DNA of 64,000 nucleotides from an uncultured Verrucomicrobiae bacterium (GCA_963762565.1 CAVXLD010000011.1:1-64000); one strand, 5' to 3'; numbered from the stretch's first letter, positions 979 to 61,194 are shown. Made by a program: numbers and translations. The notes: generated by a model from the letters alone, not told the origin.

Positions 979-1091
979 AACGTTTGGCGTTTGAGGTTCG
1001 GCGCGGTCGAAACGGTAGCGGTTAGGAACGCTCGCCGAATCGAGAACTAGGACGCCAAACGCCAAACGGCAAACGCCAAACGCCGAACGTT
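979..1091. repeat. Inverted heptamer bracket, GGCGTTY / RAACGCC type
   Basis: Left arm AACGTTTGGCGTTTGAGGTTCGGCG. Right arm is about five ACGCCRA units ending 2 nt from the stop codon at 1094. Confidence 0.8.
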
Positions 1092-1093
1092 CC

Positions 1094-2134
1094 TCACTTC
1101 TTGAGCTTCTTATCCAGATACAGCTGCATGTCGCTGTGCTTGCCTTTGAAAGCGACAATGAAACAGCAGTCTTCAACAGCGGTCACAGCGCCTTCCCAAT
1201 TCTCACCATCCACGATCACCCATTTCCCTTTACGCATCTTCACGCCCAGATCAGCGGGATGAAATAGGAACATAAGAACCTCTCTGTCGTTGCTCTTCGC
1301 GAGGATCTGTCCGATATCGGCTCCACTAAACTTGAAGACGCGGCAACCGAGAGTCGGGGTGTCAGCGAATTCTTTTGGCACGGCGAACCAATGCATGTCG
1401 CTTTTCAGAAAAAACCAATCTTTTAGATTTGCTGTGGTCGTGGTCGTGTCTGTAGGGACCGCCTCGAATTCGTCGCCGTTCAACTTATCGGCCGTGTTCA
1501 GTAGCTCCGTTACCTGATCGACTCCGGTGAAGCCGTTGTGCATCTGGTCCCAAACGATCCAGGCGATCAGCGCGATCGTGGCGATCAAGCCAACGCTAAC
1601 GGCTGCCATGATGGTAACTGGCCGCGCCCGGGGCGGCTCTTCTTCCTTTTCTTCTTCTTCAGCTTTCTCAGCCGCTTCTTCCGCTGCGGGTGGGGCGGTC
1701 GGTTGCCCTGCCTCCGCCTCTTTCTTTGGCTCGATTGGCGGCGATTCTTGAACCTCGGGGATTACCGTTGCTGCTGTCGCGTCGGCAATTGGAGTTTGAG
1801 GCAGAACCGGTGCCGGTGGCGCCGGAGCGGGCGCCTCATGCTTGGCCGACGTAGCTAAAGGGAGCGACGTGGCGAAGTCTGCCGGTTGAGCGGTTACCTG
1901 CGGCGGTGCCGGGGTTTCGACCGGGTTGTCCACTAGCAAATTTTCGAGCTGCTCGATCTGTTGGTCAGTGAGCGCGAGCGTTTGCAGCGCGGTGACGATC
2001 TGATCGTCAAAGGCGTTCTGATGCTCTAATTGGCTCTGAAGACCTGGGCTCTCGCTAATCGCTCTCTTGGCATCGGCGATTTCCCCTTGAGTCTCATAGA
2101 TTGGCCTAACCAAAGGAAGCAACCGTTCGGACAT
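1094..2134 (-). CDS. Single-pass membrane protein, putative anti-sigma factor
   Basis: Pro/Ala/Glu-rich linker, one TM helix (IMAAVSVGLIATIALIAWIVW) and a C-terminal domain; lies directly downstream of the ECF-like gene. Confidence 0.6.
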   Translation of the reverse strand: MSERLLPLVRPIYETQGEIADAKRAISESPGLQSQLEHQNAFDDQIVTALQTLALTDQQIEQLENLLVDNPVETPAPPQVTAQPADFATSLPLATSAKHEAPAPAPPAPVLPQTPIADATAATVIPEVQESPPIEPKKEAEAGQPTAPPAAEEAAEKAEEEEKEEEPPRARPVTIMAAVSVGLIATIALIAWIVWDQMHNGFTGVDQVTELLNTADKLNGDEFEAVPTDTTTTTANLKDWFFLKSDMHWFAVPKEFADTPTLGCRVFKFSGADIGQILAKSNDREVLMFLFHPADLGVKMRKGKWVIVDGENWEGAVTAVEDCCFIVAFKGKHSDMQLYLDKKLKK

Positions 2135-2136
2135 GG

Positions 2137-2532
2137 CTACGACAAGTGGTAATTGAGCTCTTCGCGCGCCTTTGCGACTCGCTCTGCGAGCGTATCCAGC
2201 GTGGTTTCGGTGATATCCGCAATGGTCGCGGGTGGAAGGATCTCCAGATAAAATAGAGTCATCGAAAATCGCTCGGGCTCGGGCAATTGATGAAGTTTAC
2301 GCGCCCAACCATTCAGTTCAGGTTCCGCTTGTCTCGGGTATGCATTCCGATTTCGAAAAGCCGTCCGAAACAGACCATCGAAATCCAGCCGTTCCAATTG
2401 TCTATCGGCATCTTTGAATGCCTGGATAAAGATTTCTTTCACGGCCGATTCTGCGGTTGCGGATGATCCGGATTGAACGGCAAGTAAGCGATAAAGCGCT
2501 TGCACGTAGTCGTAAGCGGTCGGCGCATTCAA
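2137..2532 (-). CDS. ECF sigma-factor-like protein (short, degenerate)
   Basis: Region-2-like YVQALYRLL..AESAVKEIFIQAF and region-4-like LHQLPEPERFSMTLFYLE..IADI..RVAKAREEL. The TTG start at 2532 is uncertain. Confidence 0.6.
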   Translation of the reverse strand: MNAPTAYDYVQALYRLLAVQSGSSATAESAVKEIFIQAFKDADRQLERLDFDGLFRTAFRNRNAYPRQAEPELNGWARKLHQLPEPERFSMTLFYLEILPPATIADITETTLDTLAERVAKAREELNYHLS

Positions 2533-2548
2533 TCCCGGAATGCTATTT

Positions 2549-2927
2549 GAGGAGTTCAAGGAGTTCAAGGAGTTCCGGAGTTCAGGAGAGGAGCCAGGAG
2601 CCAGAATCCAGGAGCCAGGAGGCGACGGGTAAGGTGAGCGCTTGCCAATAACGAGCCGCATCGTTTCAAAAAGTAATCAGTATTTCAGTGATCAGTAAAC
2701 GGAGCCGTGATTTGAACTCTCGATCCCACGGCACACTGATTATTGACGTAGCGATTACTGAATTACTTCGACCCATAGTGCATTTTCTTCCAGGCGTCGC
2801 CTAACCCCTGACCTCCTGGCTCCTGGATTCTGGCTCCTGACTCCTTCTCCTTGAACTCCTGAACTCCCGAACTCTGAACTCTCCGACTACGCAAAGCCTA
2901 CGTCGCGGCAGGCCTTGAACTCCTCCT
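2549..2927. repeat. Three-layer nested inverted tandem-repeat cassette
   Basis: Outer layer GGAGTTCA(A) / (T)TGAACTCC; middle layer AGGAGCC-AGAATCC / GGATTCT-GGCTCCT heptamers; inner layer CAGTAATC-like / ATTACTGA-like units. Confidence 0.85.
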
Positions 2928-2949: not shown

Positions 2950-4683
2950 TTGAACCGTCAAAAGACCATACTGTTTGTTTGTACCGGGAATGTATGCAGG
3001 AGTCCGATGGCAGAAGGCCTTTTTGAAAGGATGACCGCGGAACGTGCGGATCTGCGCGTCCTGTCGGCGGGTGTCAGTACCTATCCGGGCCAGCCGCCTA
3101 GCGCGCACGCGGTTGAAGTCCTGGAGGAGCTTGGTGTCGACATCTCTCAACATCGCAGTAAGCCAATCAGTGAGAAGGTGGTCGAAGAAGCGGATTGGAT
3201 CATAGCAATGACCCGCAGTCATTTGGATTCGATTATCTATCTCTTTCCCAGGGCGGCGGAGAAAGTTTATCTACTACGTGAGTTTGAGCCGGGAGCAACC
3301 TCGCTTGATGTTGCCGACCCAATTGGCATGGGCTTGGAAGCCTATCGAGCCGCGCGTGAGATAATCCGGCATAGTTTGCCCGGGCTAATGCAGTTTATCG
3401 ATCAATATCGCCCCGGAGCTTTTTCCACTATGAGTCGAAACCCGCACAACCGTTCGTTAGAAGAAGTCGATCCCGAGATTTTTCAGGCAATCGAAGCGGA
3501 ACGGATCCGCCAGTTTGAAAATATCGAGTTAATCGCTTCGGAGAACTTTACCAGTCGCGCGGTAATGGAAGCCCAAGGATCTGTCCTGACCAACAAATAC
3601 GCGGAGGGATATCCGGGAAGACGTTGGTATGGCGGTTGCGAGAATGTGGATGTGGTGGAGCGGCTCGCTATTGATCGGGCCAGGCAGTTGTTTGGCGCCG
3701 AGCACGTCAACGTCCAAGCCCATAGCGGAAGCCAGGCGAACATGGCGGTCTATTTCAGCGTGCTAAACCCCGGGGACCGAATTTTAACGATGGACCTATC
3801 CCATGGAGGCCATCTTACTCATGGTAACAAGGCGAATTTCTCCGGACGCTTTTATTCGGTTGTACACTATGGCGTAGACCGTGAAACCGAGCGTATCGAT
3901 TACGACCAGCTGGCCCGACAAGCAGAAGAACATAAGCCGAGGATGATCACGGCCGGCGCTTCTGCCTACTCACGGATTATCGATTTCCAGAAGATGCGGC
4001 AAATCGCGAATTCAGTGGGTGCCTATTTGTTCGTGGATATCGCCCATATAGCAGGTCTGGTAGCAGCCGGCGTGCATCCCACTCCCATTGGAATCGCGGA
4101 CTTTGTCACTACCACCACGCATAAGAGTTTACGTGGTCCGCGAGGGGGGATCATCATGTGTAAACCGGAACATGCCAAGGCCATCGACAGCCTGATGTTT
4201 CCCGGAGTTCAAGGGGGACCGCTTATGCACGTGATTGCAGCGAAGGCGGTTTGTTTTCACGAAGCCTTGCAGCCGGGATTCAAAGAATACCAGGTTCAGA
4301 TTACGAACAACGCTAAGGCGTTGGCTGCCAGCCTGCACATGAAGGGTTATCGTTTGGTGTCCGGAGGAACCGACAATCATTTGATGCTGGTTGACTTGCG
4401 GCCCAAAGGATTGAACGGCAGGCAAGCCCAGGAAACCCTCGATGTCGCCGGGATCACCGTTAACAAAAATTCCATCCCCTTTGACACCGAATCTGTGGTG
4501 AAAGGCGGAGGCATCAGGATTGGAACGCCGGCTGTCACCACGCGCGGAATGAAGGAAGAGGAGATGATGGAAATCGCTGACCTCATGGACGAAGCACTCA
4601 GTTCTAACGGTGACGCATCGGTTCTTGAAAAAGTGCGCCAGAAAGTAAAGGGGCTGACCGCGAAGTATCCGCTGCCGGGTTAG
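2950..4683 (+). CDS. glyA: LMW protein Arg/Tyr phosphatase fused to serine hydroxymethyltransferase
   Basis: N-terminal CTGNVCRS P-loop and DVADPIG; from about aa 161 the SHMT motifs [17 protein letters not shown] and [13 protein letters not shown]. One continuous frame. Confidence 0.95.
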
Positions 4684-4684
4684 G

Positions 4685-5124
4685 GTTTGGCGTTCGGCGT
4701 TTGGCGTTCGGCGGTTTGGTGGGGCGAGGCTCCCGAAAGAACTAGGAGATCGAACAACGAGACTAGATTCGCCCTCACTCTATCATTTGAGACGCCGGAT
4801 CGCGCGCCGAGCCGGACGCTAGACGTGCCAACGCCTTACCGCCTCCGAGCTTTCGAGCAAGCCCTGCTTGGCCATCACCCGACGCCCCAGCGAAACCGGT
4901 GTGCATGCCGTGTCGTGGGTCCGGCTCGGCGCGCGGTTCGAGCTTGCAAATGAAAGAGCGGCGATACGTTTAATCTCTTTGATTAGCGATTCAGGTCTTT
5001 CGGGAGCCTCGCCCCACCAAATCAGCCGCCAAACCGCGCAACCGCCAAACGCCGAACCGCCGCAACCACCGCACGCCAACCGCCGAACGCCGAACGCCGA
5101 ACGCCGAACGCCGAACGCCAAACG
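4685..5124. repeat. GGCGTTY / RAACGCC bracket enclosing a REP-like doublet
   Basis: Runs from the glyA stop to the malQ stop. Inside: TGGTGGGGCGAGGCTCCCGAAAGA ... TCTTTCGGGAGCCTCGCCCCACCA, with an inner CGCGCCGAGCCGGAC / GTCCGGCTCGGCGCG pair. Confidence 0.9.
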
Positions 5125-6630
5125 CTACCTCTGATACAGCCTGGCGAGCTGCCGGAGCTGGTCTCCTCTTTGACCCCAGAGCTGATCCAATTGCTCCGAT
5201 GTGAAACGCCACCGCCAATTACCGATCGCTTGACCCGGCGTATTCATGCGGCCTTCGCTACCCAAACCGAGAAAATCTTGTAGTGGTGTGATGAAAATGC
5301 GCGATGTGGAGGCATATCCGGCATGGATCATCTCCCAAGGAACGTTCTTGGCGTCTGTCCTAAGGTATTCGCTGAAGAACCGTTTTACCTGTTCGGGTTG
5401 GGTTCTGAACCAGCCCCAGCTCGTATCATTGTCGTGGGTTCCAGGATAGAGAACGGAGTAAGGAATCGTGCTGTGCGGCAGGTACTCTGTGGCCCCTTCA
5501 AAAGCGAATTGCAGCACTTTCATCCCCGGTAAACCGACGTGCTGCATCAACCGGCGGACCGAATCGGTAATGATACCCAAGTCCTCAGCCACCAGCTTCG
5601 CGTTTGGGAAACGGCGACGTACAACCTCGAACAGCTTAAGGCCAGGCCCGGGCTCCCAAGTGTATTGGCGAGCATTCTTCGCATCAGGCGGAATCCGGCA
5701 ATACTCGTCGAACCCACGGAAATGGTCGATCCGGATCACATCGTAAAGTTCGAACGCTTTCTGCAGCCGTGCACACCACCAGGCATAATCGTCGACCGCG
5801 TGGCGGTCCCACGCGTAAAGTGGATTACCCCAAAGTTGGCCGTCAGCCGAAAAATAATCAGGTGGCACGCCGGCGACTCCGGTCGGACGGAGATCAGTGT
5901 CCATTTGAAATAAGGAGGGATGTCTCCAGACATCCGCGCTATCCATCGCAACGAAAATCGGAATATCTCCAAAGATAGAGATACCGCGCTGATTAGCGTA
6001 CGCCTTTAGAGCCGACCACTGCTGGAAGAATTTGAATTGATAGAAAGCGCAGGCTACACCCGCGCCAGTCTGCAGATCTGTCCGCTTTGTAGCCGTCCGG
6101 TACTTTCGGTAGGACCTTGGCCATTCCAGCCATGAGCGATGACCAAATTGCCCCTTAATCGCCATGAAAAGCGCGTATGAGTCTAGCCAATCGGAATTGA
6201 TTTCCCGAAACTTGTGAAAGGCGTCTTGTGATGACCGGTTCGCTGTTTCCGAAAACGTGGCGAAGGCTTTCTCCAGAATAATCCAACGCAGATCCCATTG
6301 GGCGCCGTAGTCGACGTAATCGGTGGGTAAGGTCCTTAAAGGCTCGAGATCGGCTTCCTGGAGCAGGCCCTCATTCTTAAGATCTTCGAGGTCAATCAGG
6401 TAGGGATTACCCGCGCAAGCCGAGAAACACTGATAAGGTGAGTCTCCGTACCCCGTTGGGCCTAGTGGGCAGACTTGCCAATATTTCATGCCGGTATCGG
6501 CAAGAAAATCAACAAAGCGGCGAGCCCAACGTCCAAGTGTGCCAATCCCGGTATCTCCTGGCAAAGAAGTAGGATGGAGAAGAACCCCGGCGCCGCGGGA
6601 GGTTAGCCAGTTGTAGAGGGGATCGGGCAC
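5125..6630 (-). CDS. malQ: 4-alpha-glucanotransferase (amylomaltase, GH77)
   Basis: Motifs GVLLHPTSLPG, GVPPDYFSADGQLWGNP, RIDHFRGF, AEDLG and GTHDNDT. Confidence 0.96.
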   Translation of the reverse strand: MPDPLYNWLTSRGAGVLLHPTSLPGDTGIGTLGRWARRFVDFLADTGMKYWQVCPLGPTGYGDSPYQCFSACAGNPYLIDLEDLKNEGLLQEADLEPLRTLPTDYVDYGAQWDLRWIILEKAFATFSETANRSSQDAFHKFREINSDWLDSYALFMAIKGQFGHRSWLEWPRSYRKYRTATKRTDLQTGAGVACAFYQFKFFQQWSALKAYANQRGISIFGDIPIFVAMDSADVWRHPSLFQMDTDLRPTGVAGVPPDYFSADGQLWGNPLYAWDRHAVDDYAWWCARLQKAFELYDVIRIDHFRGFDEYCRIPPDAKNARQYTWEPGPGLKLFEVVRRRFPNAKLVAEDLGIITDSVRRLMQHVGLPGMKVLQFAFEGATEYLPHSTIPYSVLYPGTHDNDTSWGWFRTQPEQVKRFFSEYLRTDAKNVPWEMIHAGYASTSRIFITPLQDFLGLGSEGRMNTPGQAIGNWRWRFTSEQLDQLWGQRGDQLRQLARLYQR

Positions 6631-6636
6631 GGGGAC

Positions 6637-7019
6637 GTGAGAGGTGATTAGTGATTAGTGATTAGTGATTGGTCAGGGGCGAGCCCTGGGCAAGCAGAAA
6701 GCTGTGTGGACTGATGGTTGGCGGGACTAGCTGTGCCGGAAAATGTACCGAGCCGTGACCCTGGCGGGCACGGCTCGGCAAGATTCTAAAATTTCCGGTA
6801 AAACTTGCGTGACCTGTGGCGCCTCTTCAGCATCTCCAACCCGCTACGCGGGTGCTTTTCGGACTTGGCGCAGTACTCCAACACTCCCACACTCCATCAC
6901 TCCGCTTGGCCGGATTCGAGGACGAGGACGACGACGAGGACGAGAACGAAGCGCCTTGTGAGCTGTTCGGCTTCGCCGAACCACCAATCACCTCTCACTA
7001 ATCACCAATCACTTCTCAC
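6637..7019. repeat. GTGATTR / YAATCAC bracket with internal repeat cargo
   Basis: Five heptamers on each side. The interior carries a 72-nt block (6830-6901) identical to 47236-47307. Confidence 0.9.
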
Positions 7020-9333: not shown

Positions 9334-9575
9334 GTGAGAGGTGAGAAGTGAAAAGTGATTGGTGATTGGTGGTTGATGACGTGCGTCTGGAGGGGAGCCG
9401 CTTTATAGGTTAGCAGATCTGTCGGTTGCTTGCAGGCGGCTCCCGGGAACGTTCCAACGCGACGCGCCGAGGGTATTTTTTCCCATGCGGATCTGACGCG
9501 CCGGTTTTGAGCCGTTTCGCTGTCGTCTTGCGAACGCCAAACGCCGAACGCCAAACGCCAAACGCCAAACGCAAA
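9334..9575. repeat. Chimeric bracket: GTGAGA/GTGATTG left arm, RAACGCC right arm
   Basis: The two arms belong to different heptamer families. The interior 9386-9449 matches the left arm of the long inverted repeat at 50771. Confidence 0.85.
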
Positions 9576-11126
9576 CTATCCCCTCGCGTACCGTTTCAGA
9601 GTAAATCGCAGGTTGATCCATGACAGCGTTCCAACAATAAAAAACAATAGCGTGGCGATGGCACTGGCTAAACCGTAGTTCGCCCCTGCATCACGGAATG
9701 CCAGGTTATAAGTGTAGGTTACTAATATGTCCGTCTCGCCGGCGATCCCGCCGCCGGGCATTCTAGGTTCGCCTGCAGTCAATAAATAGATAAGCGCGAA
9801 GTTATTGAAGCTAAACGCGAAGCTCGCCACCAGCACTGGGAATAGCGGAGGCAACACCAGTGGTAGCGTTAAATAAAAGAAGTTTAGCACCGGATTACTG
9901 CCCTCGATGGCCGCGGACTCGTAGATGGTTGAAGGAATCGACTGCAACATTCCTGTGCAGATCAACATCATGTAGGGATAGCCCAGCCAGACATTCACTA
10001 ACAGGATCATGGCCCGTGCCGCCCAAGGATCGGTCTCCCAAGCAGGAGCAAACCCCAGAACCGCCTTGAGGAGTTGATTTACGGCTCCGAATTCCTGATT
10101 AAAGAGTCCTCTCAGAATCAGGAGCGATAAGATTCCGGGCACTGCGTACGGAAGAATAAGTAACGTCCGGTAAAGCTTTTTGAATTTCAGTTCTCGCCAT
10201 TCCAAAATCACTGCCAGCAAGATCCCGGCTGTAAACGTTCCCAGCACGGAGCAGATAGAGAAGGCCAGCGTCCAGACAAAGATTCGGAAAAAAGGGCCCT
10301 GGATTCGCGGGTCGGTGATGATTTGAACGTAGTTATCGAGACCAGCAAAAGACCGGAATCCGGGTCCAATCTGTTCTCCAGTTTGATCGAGAAAACGGCC
10401 TCCACGAAAGTCCGGCCGAACAACCGAGCCGTCGATCTGATTGGTCAGAGAGCCGTCCGGATTAGTTTTCCAGACCCGCCGCTGAGTAATGAAATGCTCC
10501 AAGTCGGCCTTTCCCACCAGAATGTCCCCGGGCAACTTGAAAGGGACGTTGCGCAGCGGTTGGTAGAGGCGGTCGCGAGCAATCGTACGCGGATCCAAGA
10601 CTTCCCCAGGAATCTGGTCATTGGGCGGAACTTGGTTCAGCTGGATGGTATCTTCCGAAAAAGCGCCGTCATGACCCGGGATCAGGGTGATGGGTTCCGA
10701 AACGAACCGATCTTCCGGCTTTTTTTCGTTTTTCAATTCGAGAATGAACCGCCCGTCGGCTTGGCGGTGCAGCCAGAAATTGAAAGTGTCCGAACTGGAG
10801 ACAGTGACCTCCGCCTTAAAACGGAGGAGAACGTCGGACAGGTTCAGCAGATGATTGGCGCTATACCGAGTCAGGCTGATGTAAACCACCAGGCAGATTG
10901 GGAAGATGACGAAGAGAGCGAACGCCAGTAGCCCGGGAAAAAGATAGCGATACGTTTCTGCTCTGGGATTGAGATAAATAAAAAATCCAAGGCAAGTAAC
11001 CGCTAACAGCCCGAGCGCGACCAGGTCGCCGCCAGACCGGTAGGCAGCGAGACAGAGGTAGAGCGCGGCTAAAGCCGCTACCGCCACCAGAATATTCCGG
11101 AGGGAAAAAATTGAAGGCAAATTCAC
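9576..11126 (-). CDS. malF: Maltose/maltodextrin ABC permease with large periplasmic loop
   Basis: Motifs YRYLFPG, YRTLLILPYAVP, LFNQEFG, VNVWLGYPYMM and AGETDILV. Confidence 0.92.
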   Translation of the reverse strand: MNLPSIFSLRNILVAVAALAALYLCLAAYRSGGDLVALGLLAVTCLGFFIYLNPRAETYRYLFPGLLAFALFVIFPICLVVYISLTRYSANHLLNLSDVLLRFKAEVTVSSSDTFNFWLHRQADGRFILELKNEKKPEDRFVSEPITLIPGHDGAFSEDTIQLNQVPPNDQIPGEVLDPRTIARDRLYQPLRNVPFKLPGDILVGKADLEHFITQRRVWKTNPDGSLTNQIDGSVVRPDFRGGRFLDQTGEQIGPGFRSFAGLDNYVQIITDPRIQGPFFRIFVWTLAFSICSVLGTFTAGILLAVILEWRELKFKKLYRTLLILPYAVPGILSLLILRGLFNQEFGAVNQLLKAVLGFAPAWETDPWAARAMILLVNVWLGYPYMMLICTGMLQSIPSTIYESAAIEGSNPVLNFFYLTLPLVLPPLFPVLVASFAFSFNNFALIYLLTAGEPRMPGGGIAGETDILVTYTYNLAFRDAGANYGLASAIATLLFFIVGTLSWINLRFTLKRYARG

Positions 11127-11751: not shown

Positions 11752-11873
11752 GCTAACAGCAAATAGCGAACCAGATGCCTCAATAGGCAAGGTCTCTCGC
11801 GGGTTTTCCAAGCTTCAGCAACGGCCTTACTCCGCCGAGCGCCCAATTTGCTATCTGCTATTTGCTATTTGTC
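11752..11873. repeat. CAAATAG / CTATTTG heptamer bracket
   Basis: GCTAACAGCAAATAGCGAA ... TTTGCTATCTGCTATTTGCTATTTG. Confidence 0.65.
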
Positions 11874-11902
11874 ATTTTTTTGGGCGAGCCTAAGGCGAGC
11901 CC

Positions 11903-14126: not shown

Positions 14127-14345
14127 TAGGACTTATGGGACCTATGGGATGCCGCCGAATGGGCGAAAGGGCGAATGGGCGAAGGGGGCGGATAGGAACC
14201 GGTGGCTCTTACGTCCGCACACCGTCACGCCCACACGCCCTTTCGCCCTTTCGCCGGTGCGCCGGTGCGCCGTTTGGTCCGCCACGCTGGCACGCTTCCC
14301 GACTTCGCAAAGCCTACGTCGCGGCCGGCCTTGAACTCCTCCTAC
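14127..14345. repeat. Nested 9-mer/8-mer bracket plus 30-nt motif
   Basis: ATGGGACCT units, GGCGAAWG / CTTTCGCC octamers, then CCGACTTCGCAAAGCCTACGTCGCGG-CCTTGAACTCCTCCT as at 2883. Confidence 0.75.
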
Positions 14346-14390: not shown

Positions 14391-15938
14391 ATGACAGATA
14401 CATTGATTGAAAATCCGTTGAGAGAAGGGCTTGTGTCTCGGGCGGCACCAGGCACGTGTGCGATCGTTATCTTTGGTGCGACCGGCGACCTGACGCACCG
14501 GAAGTTGATCCCGGCCTTATACAATTTGGCTGCCGACGGCGATCTGCCGCCAGGCTTAAGCGTTGTCGGCTTTGCTCGCCGGGACAAGAAAGACGAAGAG
14601 TTCCGGCAGGAGCTTTACGAGGCGGCTCGCAAATATTCGCGTCAGCCGGTCGATGATGCACTCTGGAAGAATTTTGCTAGCTCGATCTTTTATCATCGCA
14701 GCGAATTTTCGGACGAAGAAGGTTATCGCCGCCTGGGTGAACGTCTCGCAGAAATTGACCGGGAGCGGGGCACCCGCGGCAACCGGATCTATTATCTGTC
14801 AGCAGGTCCGGACCAGTTTGAGCCGATTCTCACTCATTTGACTGCGACCGGCCTCAATCGAGCTGCCGACGGGGCATGGGCCCGTATCATTGTGGAGAAA
14901 CCGTTCGGTGTGGATCTCGAGACTGCGCAGCGCCTCAATAGCGCAGTGAACCATGGGTTCAAAGAACAAGACACCTTCCGAATTGACCATTACCTGGGAA
15001 AAGAAACTGCTCAGAACATCATGGTTCTGCGATTTGCGAACGCGCTTTTCGAGCACCTTTGGAACCACCGCTACATTGACCACGTCCAGATTACCGCCAG
15101 CGAGAAGCTAGGCGTCGAAAACCGGGCCGGTTATTACGAGGGGGCCGGTGCGTTACGGGATATGGTGCAGAACCATTTACTGCAACTTCTCTGCTTGATC
15201 GCAATGGAGCCGCCGACGGACCTCAGCGCAGATTCAATTCGAGATGAGAAAGTAAAGGTCCTGCGTTCTCTCCGCCGGATCCGAGGGGAAACCGTGTTCC
15301 AGAATGTTGTGCGCGGCCAATACACCGATGGTTCGATCGATGGTGAGTCCGCAGTCGGTTACCGGCAGGAAAAGAACGTAAATCCCGGATCAATGACCGA
15401 GACTTATGCCGGGCTTAAAATCCTGATCGACAATTGGCGCTGGGCCGATGTGCCTTTTTATGTGCGGGTTGGGAAACGACTGCCAAAAGGCGGGACCGAG
15501 ATCGGGATCCATTTTAAGAATGCGCCGGGAGTATTGTTCAACCGTGACCAACCGAGCGGCCGGGACGGAGTCCAGAACGTTCTGGTGATCCGGATCCAGC
15601 CTGACGAAGGTGTTTCGCTCCGCATCCAATCGAAGGTACCGGGAGCGAGTGTGCAGATTCAGCCGGTAAAAATGGATTTCAGGTATGGCACCTCTTTTGG
15701 AAAAGCCAGCCCGGAGGCATACGAGCGCCTTTTACTCGATGCGATGGCAGGGGATGCCACTCTGTTTGCCCGGCGGGACGAGGTCGAAGAAGCCTGGCGA
15801 TTTATCGATGACATCGAGGCCGGCTGGCGGGAGCATGGCAACGAAAAAAACCTGGCCTTTTACTCGGCCGGGAGCTGGGGACCCGCAGAGGCGGATGCGT
15901 TGATTGAGCAGGACGGGCGGGGGTGGCGAAGACTGTGA
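14391..15938 (+). CDS. zwf: Glucose-6-phosphate 1-dehydrogenase
   Basis: Motifs IFGATGDL, EKPFG, RIDHYLGKE, RDMVQNHLLQ and AYERLLLD; likely start MTDTLIENPL. Confidence 0.97.
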   Translation: MTDTLIENPLREGLVSRAAPGTCAIVIFGATGDLTHRKLIPALYNLAADGDLPPGLSVVGFARRDKKDEEFRQELYEAARKYSRQPVDDALWKNFASSIFYHRSEFSDEEGYRRLGERLAEIDRERGTRGNRIYYLSAGPDQFEPILTHLTATGLNRAADGAWARIIVEKPFGVDLETAQRLNSAVNHGFKEQDTFRIDHYLGKETAQNIMVLRFANALFEHLWNHRYIDHVQITASEKLGVENRAGYYEGAGALRDMVQNHLLQLLCLIAMEPPTDLSADSIRDEKVKVLRSLRRIRGETVFQNVVRGQYTDGSIDGESAVGYRQEKNVNPGSMTETYAGLKILIDNWRWADVPFYVRVGKRLPKGGTEIGIHFKNAPGVLFNRDQPSGRDGVQNVLVIRIQPDEGVSLRIQSKVPGASVQIQPVKMDFRYGTSFGKASPEAYERLLLDAMAGDATLFARRDEVEEAWRFIDDIEAGWREHGNEKNLAFYSAGSWGPAEADALIEQDGRGWRRL

Positions 15939-15941
15939 AAG

Positions 15942-16552: not shown

Positions 16553-16557
16553 ATTTT

Positions 16558-45607: not shown

Positions 45608-45837
45608 TTGGTAGGGCGAGGCTCCAAAAACGTGCCCTGTCGGTGGCAAATTGACAATCAGGTGGGGACCTTGCTTCAGGTGTAGCAGCATGGCCGAGCC
45701 GCTGCCTTGCGCCACCCCCGGCTCGGCCATGTTGCATCACTCGCTGGGAAGAGCCCATATCCGGCAGCCTAATTGGCCAGGGATTGGACACGTCTTGGAG
45801 CCTCGCCCTACCAACTCCTTGAACTTCTAGAACTCCT
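45608..45837. repeat. REP-like doublet plus a TTGAACTYC right arm
   Basis: TTGGTAGGGCGAGGCTCCAA ... TTGGAGCCTCGCCCTACCAA with an inner GCCGAGCCG / CGGCTCGGC pair. Confidence 0.85.
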
Positions 45838-49907: not shown

Positions 49908-50081
49908 GGTTCACCGTTCACTGTGCGCCGTTCGCAGTCAGAAACTCCGGGCGGCGAAGCGCAGACGACATAAGTCCCATGAGTCCAATAACTCCCATCC
50001 GCGTCGCGCTGACAGGCGTAGCGACGTTCTACTGCAAACCGTGAACCGCAAACCGTGAACCGCAACCGTGAACCACGAACC
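49908..50081. repeat. GGTTCRC / GYRAACC heptamer bracket
   Basis: The right arm has about seven GTGAACC/GCAAACC units and ends 8 nt before the msrA ATG. Confidence 0.8.
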
Positions 50082-51138: not shown

Positions 51139-53997
51139 ATGATGACCAACAAATGGGTATTGAGTCTGACGTTAGCCGGCGGGTTCTGCTTACCATGGCC
51201 CGCATCCGCGAAGGAAGAGCCCACTATAACTTCGGGAGGCCAGATGCTCCCGACTGGGCAAAACATTTCCCCACTAAGTGCGCCGGGCGCCAAAATCCAA
51301 GAGCTCAATCCGGGTTTAACAGACTTACCGAATTTTGTCGCCGGAGGCGGGGTTACCACGGTGCTCAGTCCCGACCAAAAGACCCTTCTAGTACTGACCA
51401 GCGGATACAATCTGGTTAGTTCCGCCACTAGCGATAAGAAGTCGCGAGAAGCGGATCAATACGTTTTTGTGTTCAATGCCTCTGGCGAACAACCGCAACA
51501 GAAGCAAGTGATCCGTGTCCCCAACACTTTCGCCGGGATCGCTTTTGATCCGTCCGGACAGAAATTTTACCTGGGCGGAGGTAAGGACGATAACATCCAT
51601 GTTTATTTACTAAAGGACGGTTCTTGGCAGGAGGAAGCGTCGCCCATTTCCTTAGCCCACAATGGCGGTAACGGCCTCCCCCGGAAAGAGACTCTCCCGG
51701 TCACAGCCGGTTTAGCGGTGACCGCTGATGGTCAGACTTTAGTGGTCGCCAACATTCAAAACGATTCCGTTTCCATCATTGATCTTTCGGCGGAAATCGT
51801 AAAACAAGAGCTGGATCTTCGCCCTGGGAAAATCGATTCTCGCCATCAAGGAGAAGCCGGTGGTGAGTACCCATTTTGGGTAACTACTAAGGGAAACGAG
51901 ATAGCTTACGTATCGAGCTTGCGCGACCGCGAAGTCGACGTGATCAGTCTTAAGCCCCCAGTCGATGTGCTGGCGCCGTCGGACGCTCCAGCGAAACCTG
52001 ACGCCATCGTATTGGCGAGGATCAAGGTGCCCGGCAATCCCAATCGCATGCTGCTGGACCGCGCCGGCCGCTACTTGTTCGTGGCCGAAGACAACAGCGA
52101 CAGCGTGGAGGTGATTGATACCCAATCGAACAAAGTAGTGAAATCGATAAAGGTCGCTGGCCCGGGAGACGTTCTGCCCGATCGGCTAATGCATTATCGG
52201 GGGCTTTCGCCAAATAGCCTCGCTCTTTCTGCCGACGAGCGCGTCCTTTATGTGACCGAAGGAGGAGCAAATTGTGTCGCCGTCATCGATTTATCGTCCG
52301 ACCTGTCCGCTGTACTCCCGCCTCGCGGGACGAAGGAGGAAGTCTCAGCGAAGGGGACAAGAACTCTGCAGCCCAAGGTAGTGGGGTTAATCCCAACGAC
52401 CTTCTATCCCAACTGTGTGGTTGTAAGCGGAGACGGACAGCGCCTCTATATTGTTAACGGAAAGAGCGAGACCGGTCCGAACCCCGGTTATTTCGAGCGC
52501 AAGAATCCTAACCAATACGTTTTGGAACTTTTGCATTCCTCGCTCTTAACAATCCCGATCCCGACCAAGGAACAACTAGTCGATACCACCAAAGCCGTGG
52601 TTGAGAACAATCAATTTTCGGCAAAGCCGCTCGACTCGGATCGCTTCCTGATGGCGTACCTCCGGCGCCAGGTGAAACACGTGATTTATATTGTAAAAGA
52701 GAACCGGACCTATGATCAAATCTTGGGCGATTTAGATCGAGGCAACGGCGATCGGTCTCTTACCCAGTTCGGTTCGGCCATAACCCCTAACTTTCATCAT
52801 CTGGCGCAGCAATTTGTGTGTCTCGACAATTTTTATGATTCCGGAGATGTCAGCGCTAATGGCTGGCCTTGGAGCACCGCAGGCCGCGAGAGTGATTTTG
52901 GCGTGAAAGCGGTTGTGCTCAGCTATGCGGAGCGCGGCCTGACCTATGATTTCGAAGGAACAGACCGGAATATCAATGTTGGGCTACCCTCGTTAGCGGA
53001 TCGGGCTGCGGCAAATCCGCTAAACCCGGAAGATCCCGATCTGTTGCCCGGAACCGCGGATGTGGCGGCGCCAGACGGAGCAACCAATGCGGAGGAGGGC
53101 ATGGGCTATCTTTGGAACCTTGCTCTGAAAGCGGGAAAGAGCGTGCGGAATTACGGCTTTTTTTGTGACTTGAGCCGGTACGAAGAACCGCCTCCCGAAC
53201 AGATCCCGCTCGAGCGACACCCATTCGACAAGAAACTGCAGGTGGCCTACCCGACAAAAGCAGCTCTTATGGAGCTGACGGACCGCTATTTTCGCGGCTT
53301 TGATACGGCTTTTCCAGACTATTGGCGCGAGATCGAATGGGAACGAGAATTCGATAGGTTTGTTCGGGACGGTGAGTTGCCTGATCTCTGCCTAGTTCGC
53401 TTTATGGAGGATCACATGGGTTCCTTCAAAAAGGCAATCGATGGCATCAACACCCCGGAGCGCCAGCAGGCCGACAACGATTATGCCGTAGGACGGTTAG
53501 TCGAAAAAATCGGGTCGAGCCCTTTCAAGGATAACACTCTCATTTTTGTGGTTGAGGATGACGCCCAGAACGGGGCCGATCATGTCGATTCTCATCGGTC
53601 TACGGCCTACGTAGTCGGACCTTTTGTTAAACAAGGCCAGGTCGTTTCCCAATTTTATACGACGGTAAACCTTCTTCGCACCATCGAAGACATCTTGGGT
53701 ACCGACCATCTCAATATCCATACCGCCACCGCACGTCCAATGTCTGAGGTATTCGATCTCAAACAGGAAACCTGGAAGTTCAAGGCCGAGCCTTCGGCTT
53801 ATCTCAAGGATACGGAGCTACCGCTTGCTAACAAAACCGGAGCGATGCAACCAACCCATGACGCAGCTTACTGGGCAGCAGCAACGGCCCAGTTCGATTT
53901 CTCCAAGGAAGACAATCTTGGCGACCCCGATGCGTTCAACCGGATCATCTGGAAAGGCTTGAAGGGTGATGTGCCATATCCCGGCGATCGAAGGTGA
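51139..53997 (+). CDS. Secreted YVTN beta-propeller plus phosphoesterase (alkaline phosphatase superfamily) protein
   Basis: Signal peptide, propeller repeats, KHVIYIVKENRTYDQILGD and EDDAQNGADHVDSHRS. Confidence 0.88.
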   Translation: MMTNKWVLSLTLAGGFCLPWPASAKEEPTITSGGQMLPTGQNISPLSAPGAKIQELNPGLTDLPNFVAGGGVTTVLSPDQKTLLVLTSGYNLVSSATSDKKSREADQYVFVFNASGEQPQQKQVIRVPNTFAGIAFDPSGQKFYLGGGKDDNIHVYLLKDGSWQEEASPISLAHNGGNGLPRKETLPVTAGLAVTADGQTLVVANIQNDSVSIIDLSAEIVKQELDLRPGKIDSRHQGEAGGEYPFWVTTKGNEIAYVSSLRDREVDVISLKPPVDVLAPSDAPAKPDAIVLARIKVPGNPNRMLLDRAGRYLFVAEDNSDSVEVIDTQSNKVVKSIKVAGPGDVLPDRLMHYRGLSPNSLALSADERVLYVTEGGANCVAVIDLSSDLSAVLPPRGTKEEVSAKGTRTLQPKVVGLIPTTFYPNCVVVSGDGQRLYIVNGKSETGPNPGYFERKNPNQYVLELLHSSLLTIPIPTKEQLVDTTKAVVENNQFSAKPLDSDRFLMAYLRRQVKHVIYIVKENRTYDQILGDLDRGNGDRSLTQFGSAITPNFHHLAQQFVCLDNFYDSGDVSANGWPWSTAGRESDFGVKAVVLSYAERGLTYDFEGTDRNINVGLPSLADRAAANPLNPEDPDLLPGTADVAAPDGATNAEEGMGYLWNLALKAGKSVRNYGFFCDLSRYEEPPPEQIPLERHPFDKKLQVAYPTKAALMELTDRYFRGFDTAFPDYWREIEWEREFDRFVRDGELPDLCLVRFMEDHMGSFKKAIDGINTPERQQADNDYAVGRLVEKIGSSPFKDNTLIFVVEDDAQNGADHVDSHRSTAYVVGPFVKQGQVVSQFYTTVNLLRTIEDILGTDHLNIHTATARPMSEVFDLKQETWKFKAEPSAYLKDTELPLANKTGAMQPTHDAAYWAAATAQFDFSKEDNLGDPDAFNRIIWKGLKGDVPYPGDRR

Positions 53998-54128
53998 GAA
54001 GTGAGAAGTGAGAGGCGGCTGCAAAAATGTGGTGGGGTGAGGACTCCCGATCTTCCGTGGAGGTTGCACGGGGCGATCGGATCTCTGCAATCTGCAGTGC
54101 CCCGTGTCTTACGGTTGCCGAGCCGCGG
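53994..54128. repeat. GTGAGAR left arm plus left half of the REP-like element
   Basis: GTGAGAA-GTGAGAA-GTGAGAG begins in the stop codon; then TGGTGGGGTGAGGACTCCCGA and GCCGAGCCG. Confidence 0.7.
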
Positions 54129-58984: not shown

Positions 58985-59228
58985 ACTGGGGGGAGAGTCG
59001 GACCGACTATGGCAGGCTCCTCTAAAATTAGGCCTAGCGGTATTGTAATCGGCGAAAAATAATTCTGTCGAGATTTTGTGGTGCGAGGTGCACTGTTATC
59101 GGTCTCAACATCATAAGTGGAAGGTCTCATTAGAAGTTGAGAGAGGAGATGGAGTAGTAGAGCTGCGTAGCGTCGGCGGGAGGTATGACGATTTCTAGTG
59201 CCGCGGTGTGCCCCGGCCGCCGGAAGCC

Positions 59229-59256
59229 TTTCATCTTTCACTTTTCACTTTTCACC
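59229..59256. repeat. Unpaired TTTTCAC heptamer right arm
   Basis: TTTCATCTTTCACTTTTCACTTTTCACC lies 16 nt before the ATG. Confidence 0.6.
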
Positions 59257-59272
59257 TTAGAGTGACCGCTCC

Positions 59273-61138
59273 ATGCTCACGATCTCCCAGGTTACAAAGT
59301 CCTTCGGGGCCGATGTTCTCTTCGAAGAGGTATCTCTTCAGGTTAACCGCGGGGATCGGCTTGGGTTGATTGGCGCCAATGGATCCGGCAAGTCGACGCT
59401 GCTATCCTTAATTCTAAGGCGTGACGAACCTGACAGCGGCTCGATCCAATTGCAGAGGAATGCGCGGGTTGGGTTTCTGCCACAGGAAAATGCTCCGGTT
59501 GGAGAGGAGACCGTCCTCCAATTGGCGACCCTGCGGGACATGCGCAGCTTAGACGGCACCCAGACCAGTCCCGACCCGACAGAGGGCGATTTTGAACGCG
59601 AGGCCAAAGCCAAGCGCATACTCTCTGGTTTGGCCTTTCGCGTAAAAGATTTTGATCGACCGGCAAAAGAGTTTAGCGGCGGCTGGATTATGCGTGCGCA
59701 CTTGGCGCGTCTGCTTGTTGACGAGCCCGATTTGCTCCTACTCGACGAACCGACGAATCATCTCGACCTAGAGACGGTCGTTTGGCTGCAGAAATATCTC
59801 CAAACTTACGCCGGCGCGCTGCTTCTGATCTCGCATGACCGGGCTTTTCTCAATTCTCTGGTGACACGGATCGTCGAGCTCGACCGGCAACGACTCTCGT
59901 CGTACGCCGGCAATTATGACGATTTTGTTGTCCAGAAAGAGGCGCGTCGTTCACAGCAATTGGCGGCTTACAAAAATCAGCAACGGCGGATTGAGCAGCT
60001 ACAGACGTTTATCGACCGGTTTGGCGCAAAGAATACCAAAGCGTCACAGGCTCAAAGCAAACGAAAAGAGATCGCACGCATGGAGCGAATCGATGCGCCG
60101 GAAAAAGACTCGGCGCCGATTCACTTCAGGTTTCCGCAGCCAAGCCGGAGCGGCGCCAGAGTAATCACTCTGGCACATATCAGCCACGCCTACGGGGAGA
60201 CCAAGGTCTATACTGATCTGAATCTCGAGATCGAGCGGGGGCAACGCACCGTCTTAGTCGGTCCGAACGGAGCAGGTAAATCGACCTTGCTAAAGCTAGT
60301 GGCAGGCGTGCTACCGGTACAAAGCGGTCGCCGCGAATTGGGGTATAACGTCGAACTCGGCTATTTTTCTCAACATCGGGTCGAGATGTTTGACCTTCGC
60401 CGGACCGTTCTGGCAGAGGCTAGCGACATCTCGGCGCCTGTGAGCGAACAAACGGTCAGAAGCCAGTTGGGCGCTTTTCTTTTCAGTGGCGATGATGTGT
60501 TTAAGCCCGTCTCCGTGCTCAGCGGTGGCGAGAAGAGCCGCCTCGCCCTGGCTAAGTTATTGTTGGACCCGCCTAATTTCCTAGTGATGGATGAACCTAC
60601 CACGCACTTGGATATGAGGAGTATCGAAGCGTTGGTCTTCGCGCTGAGCCAGTACGCTGGAACTCTGGCGTTTGTGAGTCACGACGTTCATTTCATCCGC
60701 TCAATTGCGAACTCGGTTCTGCATGTGAGGCAAGGCCAAATCAAGTTCTATCCGGGTGGCTACGATTATTTTATTGAAAAAACCGCATCAGATTCGGATC
60801 AGCTTAGCAGCCCGAATGGAGACGCTCCGGCGCCGCCAGTTCAATCTGCTCCCCGCAGCCAAGAGAAAGAGCGGAAACGCTTGGAAGCCGAAGCGCGCCA
60901 GCAACGTTCACAAGAGGAACGGGCGCTTCGCGCAAAGTTACAGCAAATCGAGACGCGGATCCTGAAGTTAGAAGAACGGCAACAAGAGTTAGTTGCTGCC
61001 TTACAGGAATCGAATGCGTCAACCTCCGAGCAGAGTTTGGAGTTAAAGAGGGTCGCCGACGAGCTAGCTACGTTAATGCCGGAATGGGACCGGTTGGTGG
61101 AGGAGAGTAAGGAGCTGCGGGCGGTGGCTGAGGGGTGA
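59273..61138 (+). CDS. ABC-F family ATPase
   Basis: Two NBDs (GANGSGKST, GPNGAGKST), DEPTNHLD, no TM segments, C-terminal coiled coil. Confidence 0.93.
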   Translation: MLTISQVTKSFGADVLFEEVSLQVNRGDRLGLIGANGSGKSTLLSLILRRDEPDSGSIQLQRNARVGFLPQENAPVGEETVLQLATLRDMRSLDGTQTSPDPTEGDFEREAKAKRILSGLAFRVKDFDRPAKEFSGGWIMRAHLARLLVDEPDLLLLDEPTNHLDLETVVWLQKYLQTYAGALLLISHDRAFLNSLVTRIVELDRQRLSSYAGNYDDFVVQKEARRSQQLAAYKNQQRRIEQLQTFIDRFGAKNTKASQAQSKRKEIARMERIDAPEKDSAPIHFRFPQPSRSGARVITLAHISHAYGETKVYTDLNLEIERGQRTVLVGPNGAGKSTLLKLVAGVLPVQSGRRELGYNVELGYFSQHRVEMFDLRRTVLAEASDISAPVSEQTVRSQLGAFLFSGDDVFKPVSVLSGGEKSRLALAKLLLDPPNFLVMDEPTTHLDMRSIEALVFALSQYAGTLAFVSHDVHFIRSIANSVLHVRQGQIKFYPGGYDYFIEKTASDSDQLSSPNGDAPAPPVQSAPRSQEKERKRLEAEARQQRSQEERALRAKLQQIETRILKLEERQQELVAALQESNASTSEQSLELKRVADELATLMPEWDRLVEESKELRAVAEG

Positions 61139-61194
61139 TTTGTCTGGGGCGGGGGAAACCCTGGGGCATGTAAAGGGTGATTAGTGATTGGTGG
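61135..61194. repeat. Unpaired GTGATTR left arm
   Basis: GTGATT at the stop codon and GTGATTAGTGATTGGTGG at 61177. Confidence 0.55.

Follow-up and report, generated by a model that had tools for sequence, protein, structure and literature searches.

Inverted short-tandem-repeat brackets at gene junctions of a Chthoniobacterales bacterium and their likeness to 23S rRNA intervening sequences

Paired short repeats in other bacteria

The 23S rRNA intervening sequences (IVSs) with S23p, found in Coxiella, Leptospira, Azospirillum and others, have a long terminal inverted-repeat stem and a PF05635 open reading frame (ORF) in the loop, and ORF-less forms exist. The Coxiella IVS carries such an ORF, and RNase III cuts its stem at the first of two to three tandem heptamers, the number of which varies between strains (PMC4990558). 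S23p is described in the same report as a homopentameric toroid. Intergenic heptamers of the GGGAATC and GGGGAYT types, known from Xanthomonas and Nostoc, form arrays of about four units, and Xanthomonas has 70–75 convergent inverted pairs in each genome (Rehm et al., 2015, PMC4692102). The arrays are found up to 50 bp downstream of stop codons, on the sense strand, or up to 50 bp upstream of start codons, on the antisense strand; some overlap the stop codon, and they are transcribed (PMC4692102). One four-unit array overlaps the start of the Xanthomonas S23p gene XCC0516 (PMC4692102 supplement). Geobacter metallireducens has 24, 21 and 8 paired sites of three to five tandem 7–9-mer units (Aklujkar et al., 2009, PMC2700814), and in Beggiatoaceae, cyanobacteria and Bacteroidetes direct repeats of TAACTGA, two to six heptamers long, lie only a few nucleotides ahead of start codons and are patchily distributed among phyla (MacGregor, 2015, PMC4679880).

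The window analysed here is a 64-kb stretch (64,000 nt) from a soil bacterium of the Verrucomicrobiota, Chthoniobacterales. Its arrays resemble those of Xanthomonas in having about four heptamers next to stop and start codons, often as convergent pairs. They differ in that the window holds many families and a much higher paired share, whereas Xanthomonas has one G-tract family, read by the authors as G-quadruplex DNA or RNA; the portion of that report used here draws no link to IVSs or their proteins (PMC4692102). A G-quadruplex takes at least four G-tracts, and the main units of the window (GTGATTR, AGGAGCY, and GGCGTTY) have no GGG runs. In the Geobacter pairs, likewise, the two sites are on opposite strands with variable spacing and occur in intergenic DNA, including operon junctions; the authors read them as binding sites of an IHF/HU-type regulator (PMC2700814). 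The TAACTGA arrays share the position next to start codons, but are nearly all unpaired (169 direct sets versus one indirect; PMC4679880). The paired form, of which the initial annotation of this DNA knew no mechanistic account, is in print for Xanthomonas, with the same polarity (PMC4692102), and for Geobacter metallireducens (PMC2700814). Different from the 23S rRNA IVSs, the elements of the window lie between protein-coding genes and not in helix 25 or 45 of 23S rRNA, and they occupy about half of all gaps, in at least seven arm families. The only Rfam match in the window is a tRNA.

Arrays and brackets in the window

Tandem Repeats Finder gave 76 rows, which were merged by overlap into 50 arrays with a period of 6–10 and at least 2.5 copies. 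First-order Markov simulations (n = 50) produced a mean of 1.0 array (sd 1.0, maximum 4). Thirty-two of the 50 arrays have a period of 7, and the copy number has a median of 4.1 (quartiles 3.1–4.7, maximum 11.4). Gene cores, hand-trimmed to Pfam or homology starts, cover 79.5% of the window, and 44 arrays are outside them (binomial p = 2e-24), 20 of these 44 at most 15 nt from a gene end (KS versus uniform, p = 1e-3). Arrays are present in 24 of 43 gaps, and brackets also occur in divergent (4/6) and convergent (2/6) gaps. The short-unit arrays that the initial annotation placed between genes are thus real and crowd the gene ends, and all of its families were found at their places, namely GTGATTR, GGCGTTY, AGGAGCY, GGTTCRC, CAAATAG, GGCGAAHN, ATGGGACYN, GGAGTTCAA, and CGCAGATGAA.

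Among same-family pairs no more than 3 kb apart, 13 are inverted and two direct. Each of the 11 pairs confined to a single gap is inverted and has its G-rich arm (G > C) on the left; genes lie between the arms of the remaining two inverted pairs and of both direct pairs. A fixed polarity per family, as first proposed, therefore holds for every same-gap pair, but an arm followed by its reverse complement reads identically from either strand, so that this polarity amounts to a single binary choice per family. Relative to the genes, the sense strand is G-rich in 14 of 14 arrays that follow a stop codon by no more than 60 nt and C-rich in 13 of 14 that precede a start codon by no more than 60 nt, which is the bias described for Xanthomonas and Nostoc (PMC4692102). 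Start codons occur inside 12 of the 14 arrays after stops versus four of the 14 before starts. An inverted repeat spans 22 of the 38 gaps of at least 60 nt, and seven of the 22 lack tandem arrays; the tandem arms are a subset of a broader habit of gap-spanning inverted repeats. Predicted folds have z ≤ −3.6 at 12 of 14 junctions (lowest −23.7), and the predicted stems of 20–100 bp enclose the element. These very stable predicted stems, with their bases at stop and start codons, support the proposed long stems at gene boundaries.

The bracket interior ranges from 7 nt (22518–22524) to a whole gene (15976–16444). The minimal bracket (AGGAGCY/RGCTCCT, 22485..22557, outer pair 22485–22557, z −6.9) has its 7-nt loop between two permease genes. 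Its family recurs as AGGAGCT/AGCTCCT at a permease–ATPase junction (23422..23566, 92-nt interior, z −2.5) and at 28974..29166 (z −9.0), where the left arm provides the stop codon of a heptosyltransferase gene and 6 nt separate the right arm from the next ATG. Between divergent genes, a double bracket (2550..2886, z −16.9) has GGAGTTCAA (4.6 copies) followed by AGGAGCC (4.7 copies) on the left and their mirror on the right (2813–2886); its arms are a compensatory C/G subfamily of AGGAGCY, with a cognate score of 53 versus 25.

GGCGTTY arms form three brackets. In the first (977..1089; arms 977–1003 and 1052–1089), 5 nt separate the end of the right arm from the stop codon of the minus-strand ORF 1094–2134. 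In the second (GGCGTTY/RAACGCC, 4681..5127, z −12.9), the arms touch both stop codons of convergent genes, the right one with 11.4 copies, and a MITE-like element (4710–5019) is inside. The left arm of the third (GGCGTTY/RAACGCC, 44078..44217, z −6.2) begins inside a stop codon. GTGATTR arms bracket the malQ–malK junction (GTGATTR/YAATCAC, 6637..7019, z −6.9), a convergent gap (GTGATTR/GTGAGTG with CAATCAC, 24679..25016, z −15.3) with a MITE-like element at 24735–24952, and a 55-nt interior at 37361..37487 (GTGATTR/CAATCAC, z −8.2) whose right arm ends 2 nt before an ATG. The malQ–malK interior contains an orphan ACTCCAAC array (6875–6903) and a CGAGGA array (6917–6949); a second composite of the two lies at 47281..47452, and 47225–47318 is 93% identical to 6819–6912. 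The longest bracket (17623..17965, z −23.7), between opcA and the next gene, has 101-nt arms that are 85% complementary and include GGCGAAHN arrays at 17640–17675 and 17913–17948. Upstream of zwf (14129..14272, z −3.6), ATGGGACYN and GGCGAAHN on the left face CGCCCTTT/CGCCGGTG on the right. An ATGGGACYN array (32856–32898) folds on the next 40 nt and is followed by an orphan RAACGCC array (32980–33025; 32856..33025, z −4.8).

Other junctions combine different families. GTGAGAA/GTGATTG (9334–9379) and RAACGCC (9533–9576) share the malG–malF gap (9334..9576), where no stem is predicted (z −0.2), yet the polarity is obeyed. At 19264..19406, a GTGAGAR/GTGATTG left arm overlapping the stop codon is followed on the right by an array of another family, TCCCATAGG (19381–19406), and at 41449..41544 a CGGTTTG array directly precedes non-cognate CAATCAC/CTCTCAC arrays. 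Two junctions with non-cognate arms that are unable to pair still obey the polarity. A glycosyltransferase ORF has the 10-mer arrays CGCGAATCGA and CGCAGATGAA at its 3′ end (27716..27787), and these have no tandem partner. Orphan arrays are ATTTGCT (11846..11877, the CAAATAG of the initial annotation), the right-arm-type AACTCCTAG (45813..45837), which adjoins a MITE-like element (45602–45813), AACCGTG (50037..50074, formerly GGTTCRC), 16 nt before the msrA start, GTGAGAA (53994..54013), overlapping a stop codon, CTTTCAC (59228..59255), 18 nt before the ABC-F start, and GTGATTR (61173..61194), 35 nt after the ABC-F stop.

The families had been seen as unrelated sequences merely sharing an architecture. 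Within a family this does not stand, as the arms are near-identical dispersed copies in which the order of variant units is kept (families D6 and D17). Specifically, AGGAGCY arms at four loci have the same variant-unit order; the two closest copies are 100% and 94% identical over 34 nt, and the fourth 82%. Within a family, cognate arms resemble each other only a little more than non-cognate ones do.

Dispersed intergenic palindromes able to fold in mRNA include REP/BIME, REPIN, and MITE elements, and tandem heptamers are known as the STRRs of heterocystous cyanobacteria. REPs and REPINs depend on RAYT transposases and have arms without a tandem-array structure, and MITEs have conserved interiors and target duplications. 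An identity with MITEs was rejected because the interiors of same-family brackets are unrelated and no duplication distinguishes the filled from the empty sites between zwf and opcA. Intrinsic terminators, in which a short GC-rich stem precedes a T-run, were rejected as well: 21 terminator-like sites versus 18.8 expected were found in 14000–30000, none at a bracket.

The IVP gene and the zwf–opcA junction

The full cassette (15938..16556) extends from the zwf stop to the opcA start. Its GTGATTG arms (15938–15973 and 16521–16556) are 97% complementary, and in the predicted fold the outer pair 15936–16558 brings the stop and start codons together. The cargo (15976–16444, plus strand) is an intact gene for a 23S-rRNA-intervening-sequence protein (IVP; PF05635, TIGR02436), a four-helix-bundle protein of the S23p/Avd-like type. 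The inner end of the right arm of the 37361..37487 bracket matches the right end of this cassette (32 nt, 97%). A search for IVP remnants in the other bracket interiors of the window found none; the gene is in one of about 25 brackets, and the rest have no ORF.

A search with an HMM of diverse IVPs found 12 genes or fragments in the window and 80 related loci. All 12 lie between inverted 7–8-nt tandem arrays, the arms of the two Udaeobacter-clade copies (L010 and L007) being judged by eye. Reversed polarity occurs in this Udaeobacter cassette, and also at two other loci (L048 and L013). Among 14 plasmid homologues fetched from 38 tblastn-matched records, 11 have flanking inverted arms of period 7–9 (z 3.9 to 30), and one of the 11, the Azospirillum locus L092 with period-7 arms, is within LSU rRNA, a true 23S rRNA intervening sequence. 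The arms of cyanobacterial IVPs contain GGG runs. The IVP has a dN/dS of 0.06–0.09 at a dS of 0.9–1.9, which indicates that the gene at 15976–16444 is under strong purifying selection, in contrast to the Coxiella ORF, reported as decaying. Despite this divergence the arms remain GTGATTG and complementary.

In 18 of 24 relatives the zwf–opcA junction is empty, with 3–7 nt from stop to start. A cassette of about 620 nt is present in the window and three relatives (L001, L002, and L008), and the Udaeobacter-clade locus L010 has a plain 165-nt palindrome. In the clade of the window, this junction is occupied by three distinct IVP alleles, each with an arm unit of its own, with left/right array copies among relatives of 4.6/4.4, 2.6/3.6, and 4.4/5.6. 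Orthologous junctions exchange entire arm families, and five IVP allele groups match five arm families. This comparison supports the initial idea of brackets as inserted cassettes. The cassettes sit exactly between the stop codon and the next start codon, are replaced by other arm families over time, and have arm and gene allele travelling together. No target duplication is visible between filled and empty zwf–opcA sites, and the 51 ORFs scanned in 64 kb of genome gave no transposase-like Pfam match or other mobility gene.

Ordinary microsatellites, grown by slippage in non-coding DNA without shared origin or role, could produce the copy numbers varying among relatives at zwf–opcA and arrays that occupy the non-coding DNA right to the ends of genes. 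Such an origin is difficult to reconcile with an array count of 50 where about one is expected, 11 of 11 same-gap pairs inverted with a single polarity, identical variant order at separate loci, and a link to one gene family that holds across phyla. We consider it highly improbable; one common architecture beyond plain slippage, as the initial annotation argued, accords with these counts.

Proposed intervening-sequence-type cassettes and competing explanations

The brackets may be hairpin cassettes of the 23S rRNA IVS type placed between protein-coding genes, with stems that loop out a mostly ORF-less insert, a reading to which we assign a probability of about one half. Such a cassette would comprise two complementary arms, each of about four imperfect 7–9-nt tandem units, flanking a variable loop; the full form would hold the IVP gene in the loop, and most copies in this genome have no ORF. 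In the operon transcript, the arms would pair as a 20–100-bp stem, loop the insert out, and make the stop and start codons adjacent again. By analogy with the rRNA IVSs, this stem would be a substrate of RNase III and is probably cut by it, and the cutting would render the insertion tolerable. G/T-rich arms after stops and C/A-rich arms before starts may be the only orientation that spares the next leader false start codons. As a counter-point, the juxtaposition of stop and start is meaningless at the divergent and convergent bracketed gaps.

An RNA stem that loops out or processes its cargo, as first suggested, has a tested precedent in the 23S rRNA IVS (PMC4990558), but a wobble test on 19 stems whose sense is known gave no RNA-level signature. 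These contain 18 G-U versus 25 A-C mismatches (p = 0.36) and 51 transversions. As G-U is not in excess over A-C, there is no sign of RNA-level filtering of single mismatches. The tandem units may arise by slippage, and copying at the DNA level, rather than base-by-base RNA selection, may keep the arms complementary.

Complementarity that seems to be kept by copying would also suit elements acting as DNA with no RNA role, through cruciform or non-B extrusion or as hotspots of recombination or replication slippage that exchange cassettes. The swapped arm families, the three alleles at zwf–opcA, palindromes nested within palindromes, and the G-quadruplexes formed in vitro by Xanthomonas and Nostoc units (PMC4692102) fit this explanation. 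However, the units of the window are mostly without G-runs, the arms are at codon-level distance from stop and start codons, and the polarity tracks gene orientation and start-codon content, which a pure DNA role does not predict. We regard it as improbable.

The absent wobble signature is also consistent with arrays that are binding sites of an oligomeric protein, in which a multimer reads an arm of about four units and regulates translation or the fate of the mRNA at the ends of genes, arm pairing being secondary. Candidate binders are the IVP itself, as a pentamer, or a general RNA/DNA-binding protein such as S1, Csp, CsrA, or IHF/HU. The copy number clusters at its median of 4.1, and four units are usual in Xanthomonas (PMC4692102). 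The PDB relatives of the window IVP, 2rld and 2gsc (the latter being XCC0516), have five chains each, in line with the pentameric S23p (PMC4990558). IVP alleles co-vary with arm families, gene-relative polarity is obeyed even by non-cognate and orphan arms, and regulator binding was proposed for the Geobacter pairs (PMC2700814) and the TAACTGA repeats (PMC4679880). With at least seven arm families and one IVP gene in 64 kb, however, most arms have no cognate protein nearby; complementarity runs past the tandem part in the 101-nt arms at 17623–17965, and seven of the 22 gap-spanning hairpins lack tandem units altogether. Protein binding is thus a possible but unlikely primary role.

The association of the brackets with IVP genes is new and is seen across phyla. 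The design shared with rRNA spacer elements joins several puzzling bacterial repeats into one class.

Tandem-repeat arms at gene ends

TRF rows (76) were merged and restricted to a period of 6–10 and at least 2.5 copies, which left 50 arrays in the window compared with 1.0±1.0 (maximum 4) in 50 Markov simulations. The period is 7 in 32 of the 50 arrays, and the median copy number is 4.1. An earlier strict detector had returned 13 arrays only (0 in simulations), and TRF on shuffles was used in its place. Gene cores, hand-trimmed to Pfam or homology starts, occupy 79.5% of the window. Outside them lie 44 of the 50 arrays, 20 of these 44 no more than 15 nt from a gene end, and 24 of 43 gaps carry arrays. 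Several arms overlap or even provide the stop codon, for instance at 19264, 28974, 44078, and 53994. Same-family pairs up to 3 kb apart are inverted in 13 cases and direct in two, while pairs sharing a gap are inverted without exception (11/11), the left arm being the G-rich one. Hence, the repeat brackets recorded in the initial annotation are real, and their density is striking. The fixed polarity claimed for each family holds in these same-gap pairs, but it amounts to one binary choice only: an arm followed by its reverse complement reads the same on either strand, and the polarity can equally be stated relative to the genes. Arrays no more than 60 nt past a stop codon are G-rich on the sense strand in 14 of 14 cases, and those no more than 60 nt ahead of a start codon are C-rich there in 13 of 14. 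ATG, GTG, or TTG occurs within four of the 14 C/A-rich arms ahead of starts versus 12 of the 14 G/T-rich arms past stops. Three-frame stop codons were rejected as the cause of polarity, as they are present in only 6/14 post-stop arrays.

Inverted repeats spanning the gap (z≥4) were found in 22 of the 38 gaps of at least 60 nt, 15 with tandem arrays and seven without; a MITE-like element and plain palindromes are among the latter. The tandem arms are a subset of this broader habit of gap-spanning inverted repeats. The MITE-like element (270–310 nt) has terminal inverted repeats of ~23 nt and a conserved inner GC-rich hairpin, and is present in at least six copies (4710–5019, 24735–24952, 26187–26455, 38961–39270, 45602–45813, and ~60–361), two of which sit within tandem brackets as palindromes nested in palindromes. 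A REP-like family of near-perfect ~49-nt palindromes occurs at 34101–34160, 34824–34883, 35060–35119, and 40484–40543. At 21360–21600, several more short palindromes take up the space that separates the solute-binding-protein gene from the first permease gene. Long non-tandem inverted repeats cover whole gaps at 48985–49286 (84-nt arms), 50773–50989 (68 nt), and 42623–42915 (32 nt); 50771–50834 is 86% identical to 9386–9449. Intrinsic terminators were considered as the identity of the brackets, but over 14000–30000 they are not enriched and none lies at a bracket. No Rfam family was detected at the brackets, either at the gathering threshold or at E≤0.05.

The setting is otherwise unremarkable, with a GC content of 52–55% throughout and an ordinary gene content of maltodextrin transport, zwf-opcA, glycosyltransferases, and ABC transporters. 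A single 577-residue ORF (2950–4683) joins a low-molecular-weight phosphatase (residues 7–146) in frame with a serine hydroxymethyltransferase (residues 170–545). The ORF calls at 14202, 17736, 32856, and 45773 run upstream into arrays, where ATGGGAC units offer in-frame ATGs. As mechanical ORF calls reach into arrays, automatic annotation of such genomes likely over-extends N-termini.

Turnover at orthologous junctions

A reference-genome scan with the zwf product, glucose-6-phosphate dehydrogenase, yielded 80 loci, among which four Verrucomicrobiota/Chthoniobacterales MAG contigs are nearest (L001, L002, L003, and L008; 94–95% protein identity), followed by L024 at 80% and a large Candidatus Udaeobacter-like group at ~70%. 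These four contigs are syntenic with the window; genes share 77–86% nucleotide identity, but intergenic stretches do not align. A LamB-type porin gene (11974–13923) is shared with L003 and is missing at the same place in the other three. The contigs of the relatives L001, L002, L003, L024, and L046 are short (4.6–18 kb), several terminating in or beside arrays, and that of L008 begins within a GTGATTG arm. This suggests that the arrays break short-read assemblies.

The initial annotation had proposed comparing orthologous junctions, and the one between zwf and opcA proved informative. Both genes are present in 24 Verrucomicrobial loci, 18 of which have only a few bases between them (typically TAA-CCN-ATG). 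A cassette of ~620 nt lies exactly at this junction in the window, L001, L002, and L008. L024 has a third allele in opposite orientation, L010 a plain 165-nt palindrome whose stem likewise runs from stop to start, and the spacing is 225 nt in L022 and 36 nt in L066. Because the junction is empty in most loci and differently filled in others, the brackets are shown to be insertions between stop and start codons, and this junction has been struck repeatedly. Elsewhere the bracket is kept and the arm family is swapped: GTGATTA versus GTAAGCA/TGATTAC between malQ and malK, AGGAGCT versus GTAATCA between the permease genes, and GGCGAAHN versus GGTTAGC versus AGGAGYT between opcA and the next gene. 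Same-family arms at separate loci are near-identical over 34 nt (100% and 94%), including the place of the variant unit AGAATCT. As they agree even in where a variant unit sits, they are dispersed copies rather than independent products of slippage.

The IVP gene and its arms

The sole whole gene inside a window bracket (15976–16444) lies between zwf and opcA and encodes a 23S-rRNA-intervening-sequence protein (IVP; PF05635, TIGR02436 'four helix bundle protein'), which is distantly Avd-like and has 2rld and 2gsc as PDB relatives. A jackhmmer search, followed by an HMM built from diverse members, identified 12 IVP genes or fragments in the window and the 80 loci. All 12 lie between inverted tandem arrays of 7–8-nt units, and the unit differs by copy group. 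It is GTGATTG in the window, L001, and L002; GTAATCA around the full gene of L008 and GTGAGAA around its truncated gene between the permease and ATPase genes; GGCGTATC around one copy of L024 and GGAGTRWT around two others and that of L046; CAATGTT/TGAACAT in the Chitinophagales contig L048, where PF05635 was confirmed; and ATCCCAA/TTGGGAT in L010 and L007 of the Udaeobacter clade, where the arms were judged by eye. The Udaeobacter-clade cassette (L010 55–560, L007 1000–1500) has the opposite polarity, with a C/A-rich 5' arm and a G/T-rich 3' arm, and its L007 copy appears frameshifted. Outside the clade of the window, a few families have such reversed polarity.

Five IVP allele groups correspond to five arm families, and arms and IVP alleles are shown to be co-inherited. 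IVP is under purifying selection (dN/dS 0.06–0.09). The GTGATTG arms keep 21–35 of 24–36 positions complementary across genomes between which IVP has reached saturation at silent sites (dS 0.9–1.9). No IVP remnant was detected in the ORF-less window brackets, where tblastn matched translated arrays only; a weak match at 2323–2511 was rejected as a sigma-70 region-4-like ORF. Two 94-nt stretches (6819–6912 and 47225–47318) are 93% identical, each with a ACTCCAAC array followed by a CGAGGA array, and the latter copy has an additional insert of ~130 nt. In L024 and L046, the GGAGTRWT brackets around IVP genes have ACTCCAAC as their right-arm type.

A tblastn search with IVP matched 38 plasmid records, mostly from Nostocales, and 14 of them were inspected for arms. 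Flanking inverted arms of 17–40 nt with an internal period of 7–9 (z 3.9–30) are present at 11 of the 14 loci, the G-rich arm always being 5', with 0–46 nt to the ATG and 0–64 nt to the stop codon. Such arms were not found at the remaining three (L083, L085, and L094); the IVP gene of L085 is flanked on both sides by directly oriented G-rich arrays. One armed locus, from Azospirillum, lies inside LSU rRNA and is therefore a genuine intervening sequence (IVS). Two IVP genes reside within CRISPR-Cas operons, one between cas10 and cmr3 with inverted arms (L093, Picosynechococcus) and one past cas2 without them (L094, Pseudanabaena). Tandem-arm hairpins lacking IVP also occur beside gene ends in Chitinophagaceae and Chlamydiae loci. 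The architecture is found in Verrucomicrobiota, Cyanobacteriota, Bacteroidota, and one alphaproteobacterium.

Predicted stem pairing and a possible common origin of the arms

Fourteen junctions were folded as RNA, and 12 gave z ≤ −3.6, the lowest being −23.7. The exceptions are malG–malF (z −0.2), whose arms come from different families, and permease–ATPase (z −2.5). The outermost predicted pair is usually at the codons themselves; in the IVP cassette, it joins 15936 in the zwf stop codon with 16558 in the opcA ATG. Pairing of the arms in the operon RNA would loop out the insert and bring stop and start back to their ancestral closeness. The observed polarity would be the sole orientation of a complementary pair that keeps the leader of the next gene without false starts. 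Stems of such length are substrates of RNase III. Cutting by this enzyme has been demonstrated for IVS stems (PMC4990558). The mismatches in 19 stems of known sense do not bear out selection on RNA, with 18 G-U versus 25 A-C and 51 transversions. As G-U is not in excess and transversions are many, arm complementarity seems to be maintained by DNA-level copying. Locus-specific co-evolution of arms is weak, 2550–2886 excepted. Non-cognate and orphan arms follow the polarity although unable to pair, and brackets are present at divergent and convergent gaps too. Together with the missing G-U excess and the reversed families, these observations argue against an RNA-only view. Both mechanisms of the initial annotation were partly right: the predicted folds agree with its RNA stem, if not as the whole explanation, and the empty and filled zwf–opcA junctions with its mobile or recombinogenic cassette.

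This kind of finding is already partly in print. The Coxiella IVS is described as containing an S23p ORF and as having a stem that RNase III cleaves at the first of two to three tandem heptamers, whose number varies among strains; S23p is a homopentameric toroid (PMC4990558). Two Xanthomonas species are reported to have 186 and 183 GGGAATC arrays, most of four units, with 70–75 forming convergent pairs; they cluster no more than 50 bp past stops on the sense strand and ahead of starts on the antisense strand, and the majority are transcribed (PMC4692102). Published data extend the tandem-arm architecture to two gammaproteobacteria. Array #15 overlaps the start of XCC0516 (PMC4692102), whose protein is deposited in the PDB as 2gsc. 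Pairs of tandem 7–9-mer sites on opposite strands (24, 21, and 8) in Geobacter metallireducens were read by their authors as regulator sites (PMC2700814), and TAACTGA direct repeats are described immediately upstream of start codons (PMC4679880). In the open-access literature, we found no publication that connects inverted tandem arms with PF05635 genes located outside rRNA. New here are the link between IVP genes and the intervening sequences of rRNA, and the clean evidence from empty sites.

A bolder reading, to which we give roughly one chance in five, is that IVP cassettes are a distinct class of mobile element found across phyla. The pentameric four-helix-bundle protein would read the tandem units of its own arms, about one per subunit, and then drive either insertion of the cassette, into the tips of rRNA helices as well as stop/start junctions, or its processing out of RNA. 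The ORF-less brackets of the window, the Xanthomonas GGGAATC pairs, the cyanobacterial G-rich heptamers, and rRNA intervening sequences would be products or relics of this one system. 

Three puzzles have stood for decades and are handled separately in the literature searched: intergenic heptamer repeats, intervening sequences that fragment 23S rRNA, and the very widespread 'four helix bundle/S23p' proteins. Here, one architecture unites them, complementary tandem-repeat arms that enclose either an IVP gene or nothing. If this link holds, all three would gain a model that is concrete and can be tested. It would also provide an annotation rule for real gene starts and stops in such genomes, where several window ORFs are over-extended into arrays, and, with the stem looping them out, it would account for the tolerance of a compact genome to operon inserts several hundred bases long.
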